A stretch of DNA of 64,000 bases from Candidatus Kaftiobacterium secundum (GCA_031459765.1 JAVKHY010000001.1:468156-532155); one strand, 5' to 3'; counted from the stretch's first letter, positions 6,560 through 58,991 are shown. Notes: generated by a model from the sequence alone, not told the origin. Translations and numbers: made by a program.

Positions 6560-7691
6560 CCAGGATCTCCTGCAGGGCCCATTCCACCTCTTCTCGGACG
6601 GCAGGATCCGTTTCGACCGCCCGCCTCCTGAGCAGGGCCTCCATCGCTTCGTTCCCCCCGATCCGGCCGAGGGCCCAGGCCGCGTGCCCGCGCACCATGG
6701 GGTCGTCGTCCTCCAGGGCCCGGCCGAGGGCGGGCAGGGCGCGGGGATCGCGCAGGTTGCCCAGGGCCACGGCGGCGTTGCGGCGCAGCCCCCGGCGCTT
6801 CGCCCGTTTGATCGCGCTGTGGCGGAAGCGCGTCTGATAGGTGGATTCGTCGATGTGCAGCAGTTCCACAAGATCCGGAAACGCCACGTCGCGCCGCGGG
6901 GCGAAGGAGGCATGCAGGCCCCGCGCGACCAGGGCGTTGTGCGGGCAGACGTCCTGGCAGACGTCGCAGCCGAAGACCCATGTCCCCAGGAGCGGCCGCA
7001 GCTCCCGCGGGATCCAGCCCCGCAGTTCGATCGTCAGATACGAGATGCACCGTCGCGCATCGACGACGTAGGGCGCGACGATCGCGCCCGTCGGACACCG
7101 GTCCAGGCAGATCCGGCACTGCCCGCACGATCCTTCCAGCGGCGGGTCCGGCGCCAGGGCCAGGTCGGTGAGGATCTCTCCCAGGAAGACATAGGACCCG
7201 AATCCGGCCTTCGTGATCACCATCGCATTCTTCCCGAACCAGCCCAGCCCGGCCCGCTGGGCCAGCGCCCGGTCCAGCAGGGGTCCGGTGTCCGCGTAGT
7301 ACCGCGCCACGGCGGCGCCTCGATCCCGCAGGAAGGCGGCCAGCGCCCGGAGCTTTTCTTCCATCACCCGGTGGTAGTCGGTGCCCCAGGCGTAGGCCGA
7401 GATCCGGCCGCGCAGCCGGTCGTCGCGGGGAGGCGGTGCGTCCCACCGGTAGGCGAGGCCGACGACCACCGCCGAGCGCGTACCCGGGACGACCTCGGCG
7501 GGAGCCGCGGCCCGCGGCGCGTGTTCCGCCATGTAGCGCATCGTCCCGTGCATGCCCGAAGCGACCCACGCCGCCAGGTGCCGGTCGTGGGGTTCCAGCC
7601 GGTCGGCGGTGGTCACGCCCACCAGGTCGAATCCCAGCCCCCGCGCGTATGCCTTGACCTCCTGCGTCAGCGTCGCCTCCATCGGGTCCAT
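6513..7691 (-). CDS. queG: tRNA epoxyqueuosine(34) reductase QueG with C-terminal HEAT-repeat region
   Basis: two 4Fe-4S motifs CGQCRICLDRCP and CDVCQDVCP; C-terminal HEAT-like repeats (DPMVRGHAAWALGRIG); the 613-aa track ORF was trimmed to the internal start MDPMEATLTQ at 7691. Confidence 0.85.
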   Translation of the reverse strand: MDPMEATLTQEVKAYARGLGFDLVGVTTADRLEPHDRHLAAWVASGMHGTMRYMAEHAPRAAAPAEVVPGTRSAVVVGLAYRWDAPPPRDDRLRGRISAYAWGTDYHRVMEEKLRALAAFLRDRGAAVARYYADTGPLLDRALAQRAGLGWFGKNAMVITKAGFGSYVFLGEILTDLALAPDPPLEGSCGQCRICLDRCPTGAIVAPYVVDARRCISYLTIELRGWIPRELRPLLGTWVFGCDVCQDVCPHNALVARGLHASFAPRRDVAFPDLVELLHIDESTYQTRFRHSAIKRAKRRGLRRNAAVALGNLRDPRALPALGRALEDDDPMVRGHAAWALGRIGGNEAMEALLRRRAVETDPAVREEVEWALQEILVSESPSRSDRRGDRR

Positions 7692-8387: not shown

Positions 8388-8626
8388 TCAGCTGCAAGGA
8401 AGCCGTCTCACGGCTGTGGACGTACCTCGACCGCAACCTCGGGCGCGTCCAGGAGCACGAGCTGGAAGAGCACCTGGGACTGTGCCGGCACTGCTGCGGG
8501 GAACTGGAGTTCGCGCGGCAGATCAGGGAGCGCCTGCGGGCCACGGCCGCGGGGAGCGAAATCCCGCCCCAGACGCGCGAGCGCCTGGAGACCTTCGTCA
8601 GGCGCCTGGGCGATGGAGGAGCGTGA
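8384..8626 (+). CDS. zinc-finger (ZAS, RsrA-like) anti-sigma factor
   Basis: 80 aa; N-terminal Cys plus HLGLCRHCC (HxxxCxxC) motif; 4-nt overlap with the sigma factor gene. Confidence 0.8.
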   Translation: MISCKEAVSRLWTYLDRNLGRVQEHELEEHLGLCRHCCGELEFARQIRERLRATAAGSEIPPQTRERLETFVRRLGDGGA

Positions 8627-43563: not shown

Positions 43564-44853
43564 TCACGCGCCGGATTCCCCAATTTGAGGTACCCGCTGC
43601 ACAGTTCCCCAGGGAACGAAATACACTAAGCCACGATCCGACATCTGACGCAACATGAACGAAAACTCCGCGGCAGTCACCCCGGCTCGCCGCCAGAGTT
43701 CCGTCGAAAGCTCGTGAAGCGTAAGCCTTCCGTCAACGCTCAACCATATAAGTGCACCAGCGGCATTGAGGCGAAAAACCCGCTCCGTGTCAACGTCCAA
43801 TAGTACGAATGCCCCGGGGCGGACTCGCAGGTACACTACCCCCGGAGCTCGAACGGGAATCAACGAGACGTCTTCCTCAGGGTTGGCAGCAATATACGCG
43901 TTGCTCACGAACCCGCTACGACGCAACCGGCAAATGCTCCCTGCAATGTCAGCGTAAGGGTAAGGGAGAGCTACTAAATCAGCATCCCGGCGTGGAATCT
44001 GCTTCGTCCCAAAACTATGAGAGTATACGCGGTGCAAGACCGCGGCATCGACTCGCGAGAGCAATACGAGGTGTCGATACCCGACATGGTAAGCGACAGC
44101 AACCGGTCCTCTTGCGCCGCTCAGAGGATCCTCGGGCATGTCCCGGAGTTCGAACCATTTGTTCCCTTTCGGAATTTGGCGTGAAGGCTTAACCCCGGCC
44201 TCTTGATAACAGGAACGCAGGAAGTTCCACTCTTCCCAGCGCTCCTTGAACCCCAGGGTCCGCTTTAGGGGGACACGTCCCACTACTCTGTAGGCTTCAT
44301 CGATCAAATCCTGACCGACCCATCGCCTTAATATTTCCGCCGCGGTCTCCTGACTCAGCCCCTGCTCCACTTCGTATCTGCGCTCTGGGCTCAGCTCATC
44401 CTCGTCTGCAGGCGGAAGAATGTGAACACCGAAGCGCGCAGGATCCTGCGCGACGCGCGAAAGCACGTCCAACCGAAAGATACCCACCCCATTGGAGCAG
44501 TGCTGGTTTCCAAATTCGCGGGTCGTTAGCTTTGATATTTCGTCCAGGAAGGTAAGAGTCCGTTCTGCATCCTCGGCTGTTTCGCCGGGGAATCCCAGGA
44601 AACAGAATAAGTGATAACCAATGCCTCTTGCTAAGCATCGTTTCAGAACAGGAACTATGTCGGCAAGTTTGACCCCTTTGTCCATGAGATCAAGAACTCG
44701 TTGATTGTAGCTCTCCAACCCGAACTGGATGATTCGCATACCCGCTCGCGCTAACTGAGCAACCAAATCCTCGTCAAGGTTCGGGTTGAAGCGGGTCTCC
44801 CCGTACCACCGGAGCACAAGCGCCTGATCGAGAATACTGCAGGAGAAGCACAA
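43564..44853 (-). pseudogene. 5'-truncated radical SAM enzyme fragment with C-terminal PqqD-like RRE domain
   Basis: radical SAM C-terminal half (FGLESYNQRVLDLMDKG) and RRE-like tail (VFRLNAAGALIWLSVDGRLTLHELSTELWRRAG); frame closed by TAA at 44860..44862 so the Cys-triad N-terminus is absent. Confidence 0.6.
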
Positions 44854-44889
44854 TGCCCTTTACTTTACCTTCGTCGATGAGACGCTTGA

Positions 44890-46563
<1,674 letters not shown>

Positions 46564-51176: not shown

Positions 51177-52079
51177 GTGCTCACGCTGGTCCCGTACGTC
51201 CTGGCCGGCCAGGGGACGATGCTGGCCGGGCGGGCCGGGGTGTTCAACGTGGCCCAGGAGGGCATCATGCTGGTCGGCGCCTCGGTGGGCTTCCTGGGCG
51301 CCTATCTCTCGGGGGGGAACCTGCTCGAGGGCCTCCTGCTGGCGGCGGTCGTCGGCGGCCTCTTCGGGCTGGCCCTGGCCTATTTCACGACCACGTTGAA
51401 AATGGACCAGTTCGTGATCGGCCTGGCCCTGTACTTCATCGGCCTGGCGCTGTCCACGCTCTTCTACCGGCTGGCGGTCGGCGTCACCCTCGCCCCTCCG
51501 CTGATCTCCACGCTGCGGGATCTGCCCGTGGCCGGCCTCAGCCGCATCCCGGTGCTGGGCCCGATCCTCTTCCGGCAGAACGTCCTGGTGTACGGCGCCG
51601 TGCTGCTCTCCGCGGCGCTCTCCCTCTTGCTCCGGTCCACCGGGCCCGGGCTGGCCCTGCGGGCCGTCGGGGAGAACCCCATGGCCGCCGACGCCCTCGG
51701 CGTGAATGTGCCGCTGGTGCGTTATCTGACCACCGTGGTCGGGGCCATACTCATCGGGCTGGCCGGCGCCTACCTGCCGATGGTCTACACCGGCACCTTT
51801 ACCGAGGGGATGGTGCGGGGCCGGGGCTGGCTCTCCATCGCCCTGACCTTCTTCGGCGGGTGGAATCCGGCGCTGATCTTCCTGGGGGCCCTGTTCTTCG
51901 CGGGGGTCGAGGTGCTGGCGTTCCGGGTGCAGGTCACGGGCGCGGGGATCCCGTACCAGTTCATCCTCATGCTCCCCTACCTGGCCACCATGGTCGTGAT
52001 GATGCCCGCCTTTCGGCGTCTTCAGGTGCCCGCGTTCCTGGGGAAGAACTACGACCGCGAACGACGGTTGCTGCTGTAG
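51177..52079 (+). CDS. ABC transporter permease (second subunit)
   Basis: multi-TM; true start may be a little upstream (in frame from 51138). Confidence 0.75.
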   Translation: MLTLVPYVLAGQGTMLAGRAGVFNVAQEGIMLVGASVGFLGAYLSGGNLLEGLLLAAVVGGLFGLALAYFTTTLKMDQFVIGLALYFIGLALSTLFYRLAVGVTLAPPLISTLRDLPVAGLSRIPVLGPILFRQNVLVYGAVLLSAALSLLLRSTGPGLALRAVGENPMAADALGVNVPLVRYLTTVVGAILIGLAGAYLPMVYTGTFTEGMVRGRGWLSIALTFFGGWNPALIFLGALFFAGVEVLAFRVQVTGAGIPYQFILMLPYLATMVVMMPAFRRLQVPAFLGKNYDRERRLLL

Positions 52080-52167
52080 CCGAACGGGACGACACGGGAT
52101 CCGAAAGGGATTGGACCCTCGGATCGAGCACTGGTAAACGCGGTTCGCCATCGAGGTCGCCGCCAGA

Positions 52168-54291
52168 GTGGCCCGGGAGCTCGACGACGGCGTGGTCTTC
52201 GTCGATCTCGCGCCGGTCCGTGATCCCGCCCTGGTCTTGGACGCCGTGGCCCGGACGCTGGACCTACCGGATTACCCCGGCCGGCCATCACTGGAGCGCC
52301 TGCGCCGGCACCTGGGTGACCGGAACATCCTGCTCGTGCTCGACAATCTCGAGCACCTCATCTCCGCCGCTCCGGACATTGGTGACGTTCTGGCCGCCTG
52401 CCCGACCGTCAAGGTGCTGGCTACGAGTCGCCAGCCGCTGCACCTCCGCTGGGAGCGTCACTACCCGCTGCTCCCCCTCGGTCTCCCGGAGCCAGGCGCG
52501 GTGCCGGATGCGACGAGACTGCTCCGGTCCCCGGCCACGGCGCTCTTCATTGAGCGGGCTCGCGCGGCCCAGCCGACGTTCACGGTCGACGACCGGAATG
52601 CTCCCGCGATTGTCAAGATCTGCCGCCGGCTGGACGGCCTGCCCCTGGCGATCGAGCTGGCCGCGGCCTGGGTCGGACCGCTGGGGCTGGAGGCGATTCT
52701 GTCCAGGCTGTCCGCCCACCGCGGACTTCCCGCCGGCGGCTCGCCGGACGCGCCCGAGCGCCAGCGCACCCTCATCGACGCCATCGGCTGGAGCTACGAC
52801 CTGCTGAACGACACCGAGCGGATGGTCTTCCGCGCGCTCGGGGCATTTTCCGGCGAGACCCCGCTCGAGGCGATCGAGGCCGTGTGCGAGGGGCTGCGCG
52901 TCGATGCGCTGATGCCTGTTGCCCGGCTCGTCGACAAGAACCTCCTGATCCGCGTCGAAGACGGCGCGCCGCGCTTTCGCATGCTGGAAACCATCCGCGA
53001 GTTCGCGGAGGAACGCCTCGAGCTGACGGGCGAGGCGGAAGCCGTGCGCCGGCGCCACGCGGCGTGGTTCCTCGACCTCGCCCGGCAGGCGGAGCGGTAC
53101 CTGTGGAGCGAGCACCAGGCGGTGTGGTTCGGGCGGATCGAGCAGGCGCACGACAACATCCGCGCCGCCCTGCGGTGGTGCCTTGACGGAGCGGATGAGG
53201 AGACGGGGGTGCTGCTCGCGGCCTCGATGCACCGCTTCTGGTTCTCGCGCGGCCACATCCGCGAGGGCCGTCGGTGGGGTGAGATCGCGGCGTCGAAGCA
53301 GAACGTCTCTGACCGGGCGCGCGCCCTGGCCCTCAGGAACCTGGCATTCTTCCTCGTGCACCAGGGCGAGGCAAGGCAGGCGCTCGGGTTGATGGAGCAG
53401 GCGCTGGCCCTGGCGCGGCGGGTCGGAGAGCCGGCGACGACGGCCTGGGTCCTGCACGGGCTGGCCCTGGCCGCGGCCGGGGCAGGCGATGCCGAACGAT
53501 CCGAACGCGTCAATCTCGAGATGCTGGACGCGGCCCGCCTGGCGGGTGATGAAGCGCTGGCGATCCGGGCGCTCTGCGGGATCGCGAGCGCCCTGCACCG
53601 TCGCGGGCAGACGTCGCGCGCGCGGGAGATCTTCGAGGAAGCCCTGCGCCTGGCCCGGCCGCGCCACGACAAGTGGCTGACCGGTGTGGTGACGGGCGGG
53701 CTGGGCCGGGTGCTCCTGCGAGACGACCCCGCCCAGGCCGTGGTGCTGCTGGAGGAGAGCCTGGCCCTGGCGCACGACGTCGGCCATCGCTGGCTGACGG
53801 CGCTCGGCCTGCAAGACCTGGCCGGTCTTCTGGCCCGCTCCGATCGTGCCGGCATCGCCGCGGCGCTGCTGGGCGCGTCGGAATCGCTGCGGGAGGCTTT
53901 CGGGCTGGTTCCCGGTCCCGGCGTCCAGGCCGCCTTGAGGGAAGCCGGCGAGGCGGCGTGCGAGCGCCTCGGCGATGCCGTCTATGAGGCGGAGGTGGCG
54001 AAGGGGCGGGCGATGACCGTGGACGAAGCGGTCGCCCTGGCGCTCGGGCGAACGCTCCCGCCCGGGAAGACGCGCCCGCAGCGCCCCGGCGGACTGACCG
54101 GTCGTGAAGCGCAGATCGTCCTGGACATCGCCCGCGGCCTCACCAACCGGCAGATCGCGACCAGGCTGGAGATCTCCGAACGCACCGTGGACGCTCACCT
54201 CCAGAACATCCGCAACAAGCTCGGCATGGAGAAGCGCGCCCAGATCGCCGCCTGGGCTTCCGCGCACCTGCCGAAGGGCGCGCGGGCTTAG
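52168..54291 (+). CDS. LuxR-family STAND-type regulator (TPR, C-terminal LuxR HTH), 5'-truncated with disrupted Walker A; possible pseudogene
   Basis: paralog of 56616..58991 but homology begins inside the P-loop (..TRFAIEVAARVARELDDG); 1-nt deletion in GGTAAA(A)CGCGGTTC relative to the GKTRF codons; C-terminal TGREAQIVLDIARGLTNRQIATRLEISERTVDAHLQNIRNKLG. Confidence 0.65.
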   Translation: MARELDDGVVFVDLAPVRDPALVLDAVARTLDLPDYPGRPSLERLRRHLGDRNILLVLDNLEHLISAAPDIGDVLAACPTVKVLATSRQPLHLRWERHYPLLPLGLPEPGAVPDATRLLRSPATALFIERARAAQPTFTVDDRNAPAIVKICRRLDGLPLAIELAAAWVGPLGLEAILSRLSAHRGLPAGGSPDAPERQRTLIDAIGWSYDLLNDTERMVFRALGAFSGETPLEAIEAVCEGLRVDALMPVARLVDKNLLIRVEDGAPRFRMLETIREFAEERLELTGEAEAVRRRHAAWFLDLARQAERYLWSEHQAVWFGRIEQAHDNIRAALRWCLDGADEETGVLLAASMHRFWFSRGHIREGRRWGEIAASKQNVSDRARALALRNLAFFLVHQGEARQALGLMEQALALARRVGEPATTAWVLHGLALAAAGAGDAERSERVNLEMLDAARLAGDEALAIRALCGIASALHRRGQTSRAREIFEEALRLARPRHDKWLTGVVTGGLGRVLLRDDPAQAVVLLEESLALAHDVGHRWLTALGLQDLAGLLARSDRAGIAAALLGASESLREAFGLVPGPGVQAALREAGEAACERLGDAVYEAEVAKGRAMTVDEAVALALGRTLPPGKTRPQRPGGLTGREAQIVLDIARGLTNRQIATRLEISERTVDAHLQNIRNKLGMEKRAQIAAWASAHLPKGARA

Positions 54292-54487
54292 ACTCCGACC
54301 GACTCGCTTTCGCCCACGGCTCTCCCGGTCTTTCCCCTGGTACTTAGGTCCTTCCTCGGATGGCGGCGGTCCAGCCGAAGCGCAAGATAGGTGGACAGCG
54401 AGACATGCGTCCTGGACCGGAGCCCTTGGCTGTGGCGCGGCGCAGGGGAGCCCGGAGCCGGGCGCTTCGCAAAAGGAGGAACTGCCA

Positions 54488-55114
54488 ATGGGAAGGCGTC
54501 TGGTTCTTGCCGCCGCCGTCTTGCTCGCGGGGGCGTTCCTGCTGTCGACGACCGCGGTCGCCCAGCAGACCATCGTGCCCGGATCCCTGGTCGTCAAAGC
54601 GCTCACGGAGAAGAAGGTGACGTCGTTGCCGGTGGGTCGGCCGCGGCTCTACTGGCGGATCGAAACATTTCCCACTCTCGTTCAAGCGCAGGCGGCGGCC
54701 ACCGGACCCTGGGCGCTGGCCGCTGAGGCCTTCGGGAGCGCCTGGCTCTTCAGGCTGGGACCCAAGGGCATGGTTTCTTCAGGTGGGACCCATGCGGCCG
54801 AGGTCGGCCCCCTCCCGCCGGTACGGGCGACGGAGTATCTCCTCCGGATCAATCAAGCCACCGGCGCGCCCGGCAGCATCACCACCGTGCACACTCATCC
54901 GGGAACTGAAGCCTTCTACGTGCTTGCAGGAGAGGGATGCCTGCACACGTCCGGCGGTGTGCTCCGCATCCCGGTCGGTCGGGCCACGGCAGGGGCGGAG
55001 GCGGAAGTCCCCGTCCAGGTCTCAAGTTGCGGCTCGACGGAGTTGCGCCAGTTGATCATGTTTGTGGTGGATGCGAACAGGCCGTTCTCATCTCCGGCCG
55101 TGTTCCACCATTGA
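54488..55114 (+). CDS. secreted cupin domain protein
   Basis: signal peptide; cupin motifs TVHTHPGTEAFYVLAGEG; AAGGAGG RBS. Confidence 0.65.
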   Translation: MGRRLVLAAAVLLAGAFLLSTTAVAQQTIVPGSLVVKALTEKKVTSLPVGRPRLYWRIETFPTLVQAQAAATGPWALAAEAFGSAWLFRLGPKGMVSSGGTHAAEVGPLPPVRATEYLLRINQATGAPGSITTVHTHPGTEAFYVLAGEGCLHTSGGVLRIPVGRATAGAEAEVPVQVSSCGSTELRQLIMFVVDANRPFSSPAVFHH

Positions 55115-56615: not shown

Positions 56616-58991
56616 GTGAAGATCGCGAAGAAGATGGTCCCGTCCAGGGCGCCCGCCGGTTCCTCCTCCGTAGAGAATTCCCGCCGCCGTCCGCCGCCGC
56701 ATCCCCACCGCCTGATCGGGCGGGAGGAGGAACTGGGAGCCGCCCAGGGCCTCATTCTGCGCCGCGACGTCAGGATGCTCACGATTACCGGTCCGCCGGG
56801 GGTCGGGAAGACCCGATTCGCGATCGAGGTCGCATCCGCGGTGGCCAGCGAGTTCGATGACGGCGCCCTGGTTGTGGATCTGGCGCCCATCCGAGACCCG
56901 GCCCTCGTTCTGAGCGCGATCGCCCAGGCCCTGGGCGCGTACGTGCCCCCGAACCAGCCGATCGCGAGGGTCCTGCACGATACCCTGTGCGGGCGGAATC
57001 TGCTCCTTGTGCTGGACAACTTCGAGCAGGTCGCGGCGGCGGGCCCCGAGGTTGCCGGACTCCTGGACGCCGCCCCGGATATCAGGTTCCTCATCACGAG
57101 CCGGGAACCGTTGCATGTCACCTGGGAGCGCGAGTACCGACTGTCTCCGCTGCCGGTCGCCGATCCACGGCTCTCGCAGTGGACAGCGATCAGGCGCAGT
57201 CCTGCCACGGCGCTGTTCGCGGAGCGGGCGAAAGCCGCCGACCCGACGTTCGCCCTGGACGCCGCCAACGCCCGGACGGTTGCGGAGATCTGCCGGAGGC
57301 TGGACGGCCTTCCCCTGGCGATCGAGCTGGCCGCCGCCTGGATCGGCCGTCTGGATCCGGAGGCCATCCTGGCGCGGCTGGAGGCACGGCGCGGCCTGCC
57401 GGCAGAACCGTCCGAAGCGAGGGGCCGACACCGGAACCTCGGCGAGGCGATCGCCTGGAGCTACAACCTCCTGGGTAATGTGGAACGAGCCGTCTTTCGA
57501 CGGGTGGGGATCTTCGCCGGCGGATGTACGGTGGAGGCGATCGAGGCGATCTGCGAGGATCTGAACGTCGGCGTGCTCGAGCCGATCGCCTCGCTCGCCG
57601 ACAAGAACCTGCTCATCCGCATCGAAGACCCCGCCGACGGGCAGCGCGAGCCGAGGGTCCGGATGCTGGAGACAATCCGCGAGTTCGCCCTCCAGGAGCT
57701 GAACCGGGCCGGCGAGACAGATGCGGTGGCCGGGCGCCATGCCCGGTGGTTTCTGGCCCTCGCCGAGCGCGCCGAGCCGCTGTTGTGGAGTCAGGATCAG
57801 ACGGGGTGGCTGGACCGCCTGGACCGCGAGCACGACAACATCCGCGCCGCGCTGCGGTGGTGCTTCAGCGGCCATGGTGATGAGACGGGCGCGCGGCTTG
57901 CCGCGGCAATGGGAAGATTCTGGTTTGCGCGCGGGTACTTCCGGGAGGGACAGGCGTGGTTGGAGGCCGCCGCCTCCAGGCAACAGGTCCCCGCCCGTGC
58001 CCGGGCCCGAGCGCTCGCGGGGCTGGCCGCCTTGCTCTGGCCTCAAGGCAAGGGGGAACGGGCCTCCAGGCTGGCAGAGGAAGCTCTGCTGGTGGCGAGA
58101 TCTGTCGAGGACCCCGCCCTGACCGGGTGGGTGCTGCTGCAGGCGGGCTTGGCGGCGGATTCCATGGGAGATGTGCGGAGCGCCGAGGGCCACCACCGAG
58201 AGTTGATCGCCGTGGCCCACGACGCCCAGGACAGCTGGCTCGAGGCGCGCGGCTCATGCAACCTGGCCATGATCCTGTGGGCTCGGGGCGAAACCGAAGC
58301 CGCGCGGAAATCGGCGGAGAGGGCACTCGTGCTTGCACGCCGCCTGCGGGACAGGTGGTTGACGAGTCTCGTCACCGAAACCCTGGGACGAATACTGCTG
58401 TCCGAGGAACCTGAGAAGGCGCGCGCGCTGCTGGAAGAGAGTCTGGCGCTGTCCAGCGAGATCGGTCACCGCTGGCTCCTGGCCAGCGGCCTGGAGAGTC
58501 TGGCGGCCGTGCTGGTCTGGACCGATCGCGCCGAGCAGGCGGCCCTGTTGATGGGAAGTGCGGAAGAGCTGCGGCGCGCCATCGGGTCGGTGAGAGACGA
58601 CCTCGATCAGGCCGAGATCGCCCGCGCCACGGCAGCCGCCCGTGAACGTCTGGGGAGGACGCGCTTCGAGGCGGCCTGGAATCGAGGCCGGGCCATGACG
58701 GTCGGCGAGGCCGTGGCGTTGGCCCTGGGCAGGCCATCGCCATCTCAGGAGAGGCGAACGCCGCACCCCGGCGGACTCACCGGCCGCGAGACCGAGATCG
58801 CGCGCCACATCGCCGAGGGGCGGACAAACCGTCAAATCGCGATCGCCCTGAGCATCTCCGAGCGGACCGTAGACACGCACGTGCAGAATATTCTGAATCG
58901 CCTGGGCCTGGAACGCCGCGCACAAATCGCCGCCTGGGTTACGGCACACCTGCCCGGCAGCGCCTCCTCCCAGCGAACCCGAACCCAGTAA
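56616..58991 (+). CDS. LuxR-family STAND-type transcriptional regulator (P-loop NTPase, TPR, LuxR HTH), full length
   Basis: Walker A GPPGVGKT; TPR-like repeats; C-terminal TGRETEIARHIAEGRTNRQIAIALSISERTVDTHVQNILNRLG. Confidence 0.85.
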   Translation: MKIAKKMVPSRAPAGSSSVENSRRRPPPHPHRLIGREEELGAAQGLILRRDVRMLTITGPPGVGKTRFAIEVASAVASEFDDGALVVDLAPIRDPALVLSAIAQALGAYVPPNQPIARVLHDTLCGRNLLLVLDNFEQVAAAGPEVAGLLDAAPDIRFLITSREPLHVTWEREYRLSPLPVADPRLSQWTAIRRSPATALFAERAKAADPTFALDAANARTVAEICRRLDGLPLAIELAAAWIGRLDPEAILARLEARRGLPAEPSEARGRHRNLGEAIAWSYNLLGNVERAVFRRVGIFAGGCTVEAIEAICEDLNVGVLEPIASLADKNLLIRIEDPADGQREPRVRMLETIREFALQELNRAGETDAVAGRHARWFLALAERAEPLLWSQDQTGWLDRLDREHDNIRAALRWCFSGHGDETGARLAAAMGRFWFARGYFREGQAWLEAAASRQQVPARARARALAGLAALLWPQGKGERASRLAEEALLVARSVEDPALTGWVLLQAGLAADSMGDVRSAEGHHRELIAVAHDAQDSWLEARGSCNLAMILWARGETEAARKSAERALVLARRLRDRWLTSLVTETLGRILLSEEPEKARALLEESLALSSEIGHRWLLASGLESLAAVLVWTDRAEQAALLMGSAEELRRAIGSVRDDLDQAEIARATAAARERLGRTRFEAAWNRGRAMTVGEAVALALGRPSPSQERRTPHPGGLTGRETEIARHIAEGRTNRQIAIALSISERTVDTHVQNILNRLGLERRAQIAAWVTAHLPGSASSQRTRTQ

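Follow-up and report, generated by a model that had tools for sequence, protein, structure and literature searches.

The 64,000-nucleotide stretch of Candidatus Kaftiobacterium secundum DNA analysed here (the window) carries two genes for STAND regulators with a LuxR-type DNA-binding domain, and the first of them, copy 1, lacks its 5' part. The locus raises the question of whether copy 1 is a dead gene or a shortened regulator that is still in use. The host is an uncultured hot-spring bacterium, and the G+C content of the region is about 70%. In the gene order of the window, a P-type ATPase gene is followed by a Bmp/PnrA-type ABC transporter operon (binding protein, double ATPase and two permeases) and then by copy 1. 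The second permease gene lies at 51177..52079 on the + strand (Pfam BPD_transp_2, E=9e-26) and ends with the stop codon TAG at 52077-79. Downstream of copy 1 are an intact cupin gene (54488..55114, + strand, 208 aa), which is the conserved downstream partner of this regulator family, an AlkZ-like glycosylase gene together with a YjbR gene, and copy 2 (56616..58991, + strand; annotated start ATG 56634, 785 aa, P0077), an intact paralogue with the motif GPPGVGKT. The regulator-cupin pair was found in L001-L004, L006-L008 and L011, and a 220-aa gene, aligned at the nucleotide level only, occupies the cupin position in L092.

In the frame of its long open reading frame (ORF), the sequence of copy 1 reads TGG TAA ACG CGG TTC GCC ATC GAG GTC GCC GCC AGA GTG, and the equivalent stretch of copy 2 reads GGG AAG ACC CGA TTC GCG ATC GAG GTC. 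A sequence-only reading of this DNA had stated that the codons for GK and for TRFAIEV stand in different frames with a TAA stop between them, and that the permease stop is close by; the re-read window sequence bore this out, and the strings quoted were correct. The GGT AAA at 52133-38 is in the +1 frame relative to TRFAIEV, the TAA at 52135-37 stands directly before ACG CGG TTC GCC ATC GAG GTC, and 53 nt separate the TAG from the GGT. Since this TAA precedes the residual frame, translation could begin only at the GTG at 52168, ten codons further in; this GTG, proposed earlier as a site of expression, is the first in-frame start, and it opens the longest ORF of the remnant (52168..54291, + strand, 707 aa, P0001). 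The residual coding sequence itself runs from the Thr codon of GKT to the stop (52138..54291, + strand) and gives Pfam matches to TPR_12 (E=1.4e-16) and GerE (E=9e-16). In nucleotide alignments with L011, L001 and L002, the homology of copy 1 to the full-length regulators begins at the ACG at 52138. Only 5 nt upstream of this codon, GGTAA, can be aligned to the Gly-Lys codons, and no codons resembling G-P-P-G-V were found upstream of GGTAA in the same alignments. With its homology starting at the Thr codon of GKT, copy 1 has neither the N-terminus nor an intact P-loop, in agreement with the sequence-only reading.

The size of the N-terminal loss had been put at roughly 50 aa by comparison with copy 2. 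At just 55% amino-acid identity to copy 1, copy 2 is an old paralogue; it serves poorly as a reference for copy 1, for which orthologues at 80-87% identity exist. The full-length orthologues compared were P0002 (L011 locus; 87% identical to copy 1, 86.5% aa; 791 aa), P0003 (81%, 791 aa), P0004 (80%, 782 aa) and P0006 (78%, 781 aa), and the L001 orthologue is 81% identical in amino acids. In all four of the former, GPPGVGKT stands about 64-74 residues from the start, and by the orthologues the stretch missing from copy 1 amounts to about 59-74 residues. Where orthologues exist, lesions of this kind are better judged against them than against a paralogue.

The arrangement before the lesion can be read from L092 (JGI Ga0137716_10017340), which carries the same four-gene ABC operon, 88.4% identical in nucleotides to that of the window, followed after the permease stop by a 53-nt leader and then by the ATG of a full-length 782-aa orthologue. 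The 58-nt spacer of the window (52080..52137, + strand; with the conserved block AAAGGGATTGG at 52103-52113 and the end TGGTAA at 52132-37) was found by alignment to be homologous to this leader, to the spacer that follows the permease gene in L012 (Smith-Waterman p=0.002) and to the L002 leader, which lies 21 nt ahead of the full-length orthologue's ATG (Smith-Waterman p=0.004). In blastn, the match of L092 to the window is interrupted after the leader and resumes exactly at L092 position 5196, which equals window position 52138. Given that the homology with L092 spans the leader and restarts at 52138, the lesion is an internal deletion of about 200 bp and not a truncation against a foreign gene. 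Its junction, GGTAA/ACGCGG, lies at 52133..52143 (+ strand; about 200 bp missing relative to L092 and L002), and the ends of the deletion are placed to within about 5 nt. By sequence comparison, the spacer is the regulator's own native leader, which has been retained, and the order permease-leader-regulator is ancestral. The earlier view, in which the truncation reached the permease stop and left nothing of the regulator's own upstream region, does not hold on this evidence.

Other origins of the upstream region were also considered. An MFP-MacB-FtsX cluster lies upstream of the regulator in L011 and L001, which suggested that the ABC operon had replaced the regulator's upstream region in the window; the gene order of L092 and L012 rules this out. 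A match of GG[A/G]TCGAGCAC between the spacer and L011 codons 15-19 was not significant (estimated chance expectation ~0.2), and the whole spacer compared with the L011 5' region gave a Smith-Waterman p of 0.43. The spacer had no match in Rfam, its hairpin was not better than that of shuffled sequence (z=0.67), and a consensus scan around the junction found no sigma-70-like promoter and no + strand terminator; by these tests the spacer was ruled out as a known RNA, a terminator or a promoter. A split gene with its N-terminus elsewhere was rejected as well, in that tblastn with the L011 N-terminus matched only copy 2 within the 64 kb window.

The consequences of the loss for the protein were assessed on an AlphaFold2 model of P0002, built from a 31-sequence alignment (mean pLDDT 82). 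The model comprises a disordered tail (residues 1-39), a helix (residues 46-57), strand beta1 (residues 63-67), the P-loop (residues 68-74), helix alpha1 (residues 74-88) and strand beta2 (residues 93-97). Its best fold matches were the STAND-TPR protein 6mfv, Apaf-1, plant NLR NB-ARC domains and CED-4, and the predicted fold is of the STAND / Apaf-1 type. The codons lost from copy 1 are those for the disordered tail, the helix 46-57, beta1 and the P-loop through Lys74 (P0002 numbering). Since the GTG at 52168 corresponds to P0002 residue 85, translation from it would give a product that begins shortly ahead of beta2 and has no beta1, no P-loop and little of alpha1. The Walker A pattern GxxxxGK[ST] that follows beta1 is absent from copy 1, where the Thr codon at 52138-40 alone is retained. 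Copy 1 keeps the Walker B motif ILLVLDNLE, of the pattern hhhhD[D/N], and downstream of it the TSR motif LATSRQPL, both (nearly) invariant in the 31-sequence alignment, the GLPLA motif LDGLPLAIELAAAW of the NB-ARC-type helical / winged-helix module, the TPR sensor region (TPR_12) and the C-terminal GerE/LuxR helix-turn-helix.

The orthologues, which carry PF00931 and PF25872, and copy 2 share their layout with the STAND-class ATP-binding LuxR regulators (LAL / MalT-like: MalT, PikD and MilR, with an AfsR-related nucleotide-binding domain), namely a P-loop domain with Walker A and B, an NB-ARC-type GLPLA / winged-helix module, a TPR sensor and a C-terminal GerE/LuxR domain. Copy 1 departs from this group in that Walker A, beta1 and the native start are missing. 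The family is neither MalT nor AfsR proper: the score was 30 bits against a cut-off of 537 for the MalT equivalog (NCBIfam NF003420), with the match confined to the helix-turn-helix region, and 35 against a cut-off of 1430 for the AfsR NCBIfam model. It is an uncharacterised STAND (NB-ARC/TPR/LuxR) subfamily, usually cupin-paired. Replacing just the Walker A lysine is enough to abolish the activity of MilR and PikD, two LuxR-type ATP-binding regulators (PMC5015266). By analogy, a copy 1 product without a P-loop would be expected to have lost ATP-dependent switching and oligomerisation.

To assess selection on the remnant, copy 1 was aligned by codons with L011, L001, L002 and six others, and parsimony was used to place the changes on branches, the outgroups being L001 and L002. 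The window branch had 35 synonymous and 24 non-synonymous changes (dN/dS 0.26), and the L011 branch had 43.5 and 38.5, respectively (dN/dS 0.34). The window branch departs from neutrality (P=3e-7), and the window copy has fewer lineage-specific amino-acid changes than the intact L011 gene (28 vs 52, p=0.01). No excess of these changes was seen in the residual nucleotide-binding domain (11/28), and there were no internal stops or indels over the 717 codons of the remnant. The absence of stops means little, because the G+C content is 70% and a spurious ORF of 315 aa runs across this region too. With a background dN/dS of about 0.22, the neutral share of the window branch is at most about 20% (dS <= ~0.013). 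It follows from the dN/dS of 0.26 that either the deletion is recent or the remnant is still constrained, and the selection figures fit a very young pseudogene and continued constraint equally well. Of the usual marks of a pseudogene, loss of the start and of an essential motif relative to orthologues (L092, L002 and L011) was observed, and relaxed selection (dN/dS near 1, indels, stops) was not. If copy 1 is a pseudogene, a dN/dS of 0.26 without indels or stops is compatible only with recent inactivation. The P0001 cluster has a single member, with no variant of at least 90% identity in the database.

A sister lineage has lost most of the same gene. L012 (Ga0209172_10000309) is collinear with the window at about 85% nucleotide identity on both sides, and its second permease is 92% identical in amino acids to that of the window. 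Behind the same leader, only the last ~77 regulator codons remain as a remnant with the helix-turn-helix alone; about 1.9 kb is deleted, with the junction TATTGAG/TA CCG CCG, and the cupin, AlkZ and 5' YjbR genes are also missing. The ABC operon of the window is 88.4% identical in nucleotides to that of L092, versus 85.2% for L012. L092 is no more distant from the window than L012 is and has the full-length gene; the window and L012 deletions are therefore independent events, and a shared origin of the two junctions is ruled out. The two remnants are alike in locus, leader and left deletion end, and differ in the extent of the loss, which in L012 includes neighbouring genes. Their left deletion ends lie no more than about 4 nt apart, both within the purine-rich element that immediately precedes the start codon, and this element may be a recurrent deletion hotspot. 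Given that L012 has lost the same gene, the regulator locus is dispensable in this clade, and the state of L012 favours the view of the window copy as a gene on its way out.

The sequence-only reading had offered two outcomes for copy 1, a pseudogene or an ATPase-dead regulator expressed from the GTG at 52168. The former is favoured here: copy 1 is probably a young, recently inactivated pseudogene that has not yet accumulated further damage. Its presumed loss of function is suggested by the absence of its own start signal, of the phosphate-binding loop and of an N-terminal strand of the nucleotide-binding fold. The working regulator is a minority alternative, and the added suggestion that it heterodimerises with or antagonises copy 2 found no support; a product from the GTG would be without beta1, the P-loop and most of alpha1.

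That the truncated gene is nevertheless in use is unlikely, yet it is the alternative that survives best. Read-through from the ABC operon and a start at the GTG at 52168 would then yield a P-loop-less TPR-LuxR protein whose DNA binding does not depend on ATP; it might, for instance, regulate the neighbouring cupin gene constitutively or compete for sites that copy 2 also uses. The ORF of copy 1 lies 88 nt behind the ABC operon with no recognisable + strand terminator between them, and the sequence makes read-through transcription from that operon possible. A GAGG stands 11 nt upstream of the GTG, which is compatible with use of this start but says little, because most neighbouring genes have no Shine-Dalgarno sequence. 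The lineage dN/dS of 0.26 without indels or stops would suit a working gene; against this, the selection signal is not datable to after the deletion, with one member in the P0001 cluster, and a stop-free frame means little at this G+C content. Likewise, the partner cupin gene is intact and constrained (dN/dS 0.22-0.24 versus L001 and L011), the allele is identical in three assemblies with its protein on 11 contigs, and NCBI annotates the 707-aa ORF as an intact protein, but the product would begin at orthologue residue 85, point mutations in Walker A suffice to inactivate related regulators (PMC5015266), and the sister lineage L012 discarded the gene altogether. A more specific version, in which selection has kept copy 1 as a P-loop-less STAND-LuxR regulator that is co-transcribed with the ABC operon, starts at the GTG at 52168 and couples cupin control to transporter expression without an ATP switch, appears less likely still. 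Were the remnant functional, it would offer a natural test of a STAND regulator without its nucleotide switch; the evidence leans against function.

For copy 1 as a recent pseudogene, the orthologues also suggest how the deletion may have arisen. In L092, the leader ends CAATAT GGGAAGA ATCC ATG and the Walker A codons read GTG GGC AAG ACG CGG. Here, GGGAAGA (4990-96) and GGCAAGA (5190-96) form direct repeats that are nearly identical and lie 200 bp apart; in L002 the corresponding spacing is 200 bp as well. Small deletions commonly arise by slippage or illegitimate recombination at repeats of this kind, and the product expected from repeat recombination is one hybrid copy followed by CGCGG. 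The window junction reads TGGTAA/ACGCGG and is 1 nt shorter than the product of perfectly in-register recombination. The ancestral gene encoded a regulator of about 780-790 aa (nucleotide-binding domain, TPR repeats and LuxR DNA-binding domain) 53-58 nt downstream of the permease gene, and one deletion of about 200 bp took the last leader nucleotides, the start codon and the first ~64-74 codons. We propose that it most likely arose when GGGAAGA in the leader and GGCAAGA in the Gly-Lys-Thr codons of Walker A slipped or recombined illegitimately. The leader end lost in this way was a purine-rich, Shine-Dalgarno-like element, and the junction TGGTAA/ACG sets a TAA directly before the remaining frame. 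The deletion probably ran between these two heptamers, with the repeat-mediated mechanism read from orthologues and not from the direct ancestor. Copy 1 thereby resembles pseudogenes made by short-repeat (microhomology) deletion in its ~200-bp deletion flanked by 7-nt near-identical direct repeats, its lost translation start and its long, otherwise intact ORF that annotation pipelines still call; it differs from them in the indirect, orthologue-based view of the mechanism and in the 1 nt by which the junction falls short of the in-register product.

The sequence-only reading had described a separate 1-nt deletion from an A-run within Walker A. The GGTAA at the junction allows three readings: as leader, as the Gly-Lys codons minus one base, or, without a gap, with TGG TAA ACG set against GGC AAA ACG. 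A history of two lesions, in which a 5' truncation ended upstream of the Gly-Lys codons and one A was then lost from the AAAA of GGC AAA ACG, seems rather improbable to us. The sequence GGC AAA ACG is really present in L002 and, with a 1-nt gap, GGTAA matches GGCAA at 4/5 positions, but this support consists of 5 nt only, for which a chance match has a probability of about 5% with three offsets allowed. The same bases also fit the purine-rich leader element at that position (GGGAAGA in L092, TGAGAGA in L002 and TGAG in L012, where the following TA is linker-derived), and TGGTAA occurs in the L001 leader (TGGTAAGA), which aligns only weakly with the leaders of L092, L002 and L012. Because GGTAA fits the leader as well as Gly-Lys, so that the readings are inseparable, and because the single junction TGGTAA/ACG requires no second event, to speak of a 1-nt loss from the A-run is to read too much into a deletion junction. 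The choice between one and two events is without functional consequence, since the spacer contains no start codon in the Gly-Lys frame; the only one, GTG 51860, lies inside the permease gene. The likelihood of two events was kept apart from the main ranking, as both histories can end in a pseudogene or in a working remnant. A programmed -1 frameshift at GGT AAA C was rejected, as there is no slippery heptamer and nothing homologous upstream.

An assembly or sequencing artefact, either a chimeric join or a homopolymer error, can be dismissed almost entirely, for although the source is a metagenome-assembled genome, the window is 100% identical in nucleotides across the junction to GCA_031459255.1 (L009; over 8.1 kb) and to an independent Logan assembly of SRR27730044 (L010; over 6.9 kb), the exact 707-aa protein was found on 11 contigs, a stretch of three As is not a likely site of homopolymer error, and both flanks are collinear with L092 and L012. 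The identity of the three assemblies across the junction means that the lesion is not an assembly slip; copy 1 is truly truncated and P-loop-less, and this state is fixed in the population sampled. The junction 24-mer had no exact match in JGI metagenomes.

The finding is an ordinary one, and its value is mainly for annotation. NCBI lists P0001 as a 'tetratricopeptide repeat protein' of an Armatimonadota metagenome-assembled genome, and this 707-aa entry of the public record corresponds to a decapitated STAND-LuxR regulator. Inference of a regulon for the regulator-cupin pair in this genome should use copy 2 or the orthologues. As to the host, L002 is Candidatus Fervidifonticultor quartus, which is among the closest named relatives; its genus appears in work on the candidate phylum CSP1-3/Sysuimicrobiota that draws in large part on Tengchong hot-spring samples (PMC11604079), and the window organism may belong to the same group. 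The proteins P0010, P0076 and P0080 were considered as recurrent P-loop-less relatives of copy 1 and set aside, as L092 shows that a 657-aa call can be the choice of a gene caller: in L092 this call starts at the GTG of GVGKT, inside an intact longer frame. 'P-loop-less' relatives in protein databases are thus, at least sometimes, start-codon miscalls at the GTG of GVGKT.

The locus of the regulator remnant copy 1 was compared with that of L012, a locus from a sister lineage. In L012, the copy-1 orthologue is reduced to approximately 77 codons of the helix-turn-helix region, which lie behind the same leader as in the window (L012 5904-6189, 6190-6444), and a second deletion has removed the cupin, AlkZ and 5' YjbR genes. 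The deletions in L012 and in the window are independent events. Their left ends are at most about 4 nt apart, and this near-coincidence may reflect a deletion hotspot at the purine-rich element 5' of the start codon. In copy 1, the linker preceding the helix-turn-helix reads P-G-K-T-R-P and is coded by GGGAAGACGCGC (window 54064-54075), a near copy of GGCAAGACGCGG, the string that codes for Walker A. Given this resemblance, the repeat to which the copy 1 deletion is attributed has a third copy in the linker string.

The leader itself, which runs from the stop codon of the permease gene to the start of the regulator gene, carries a block, AAAGGGATTG[A/G], that is conserved in four diverged genomes (window 52103-52113; L012 5919-5928; L002 5110-5120; L092 4961-4971), the form in L092 being GAGGAATTGA. 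It might serve as an operator or as a -35-like element.

Divergence was not uniform along the locus. For the regulator, the dS of the window was 0.23 against L011, the locus with the closest protein, and 0.48 against L001, a second locus with a full-length orthologue, whereas for the cupin gene the corresponding values were about equal (0.35 and 0.32, respectively). The helix-turn-helix remnant of L012 (5986-6180) was much nearer to L001 (dS of 0.18) than to the window (dS of 0.56). Such discordance along the regulator and cupin genes suggests that recombination has taken place among related populations.

A cupin gene of approximately 205-220 aa was found 3' of the regulator in nearly all of the loci recovered (window 52138-55114; L001-L004, L006-L008, L011 and L092), among them loci of a Meiothermus MAG and of Calidithermus roseus. 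The regulator and the cupin constitute a conserved module. The cupin had no match in NCBIfam.

In L012, the orthologue found at the position of copy 2 showed an apparent 1-nt deletion within the P-loop codons (approximately 6845-6865), which read GGG CCC CC- GGC GTG and place the N-terminus out of frame with the remainder of the gene. The gap falls in a C5/G run and represents either a true frameshift or a sequencing error; the corresponding P-loop site of L092 is intact. At L092 8405-10579, the protein called by JGI is 657 aa long and begins at the GTG of G-V-G-K-T, although the frame is open from the ATG at 8405, a start that would add 67 residues. The database relatives that seemingly lack a P-loop may likewise be start-call artefacts: the N-terminus of P0076 is VGKTR, and P0080 (VFVDLAP...) and P0010 (LDAIALALG...) start deeper within the domain.

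The AlkZ-like gene 3' of the cupin gene in L011 (8897-9448), which among the full-length relatives is the closest, was called at only 140 aa, although the tblastn match spans residues 34-258; the gene is probably disrupted in L011. Elsewhere in the window, the G+C content of 44000-45000, just 5' of the P-type ATPase gene, was 0.53-0.57, compared with approximately 0.68-0.72 in the rest.
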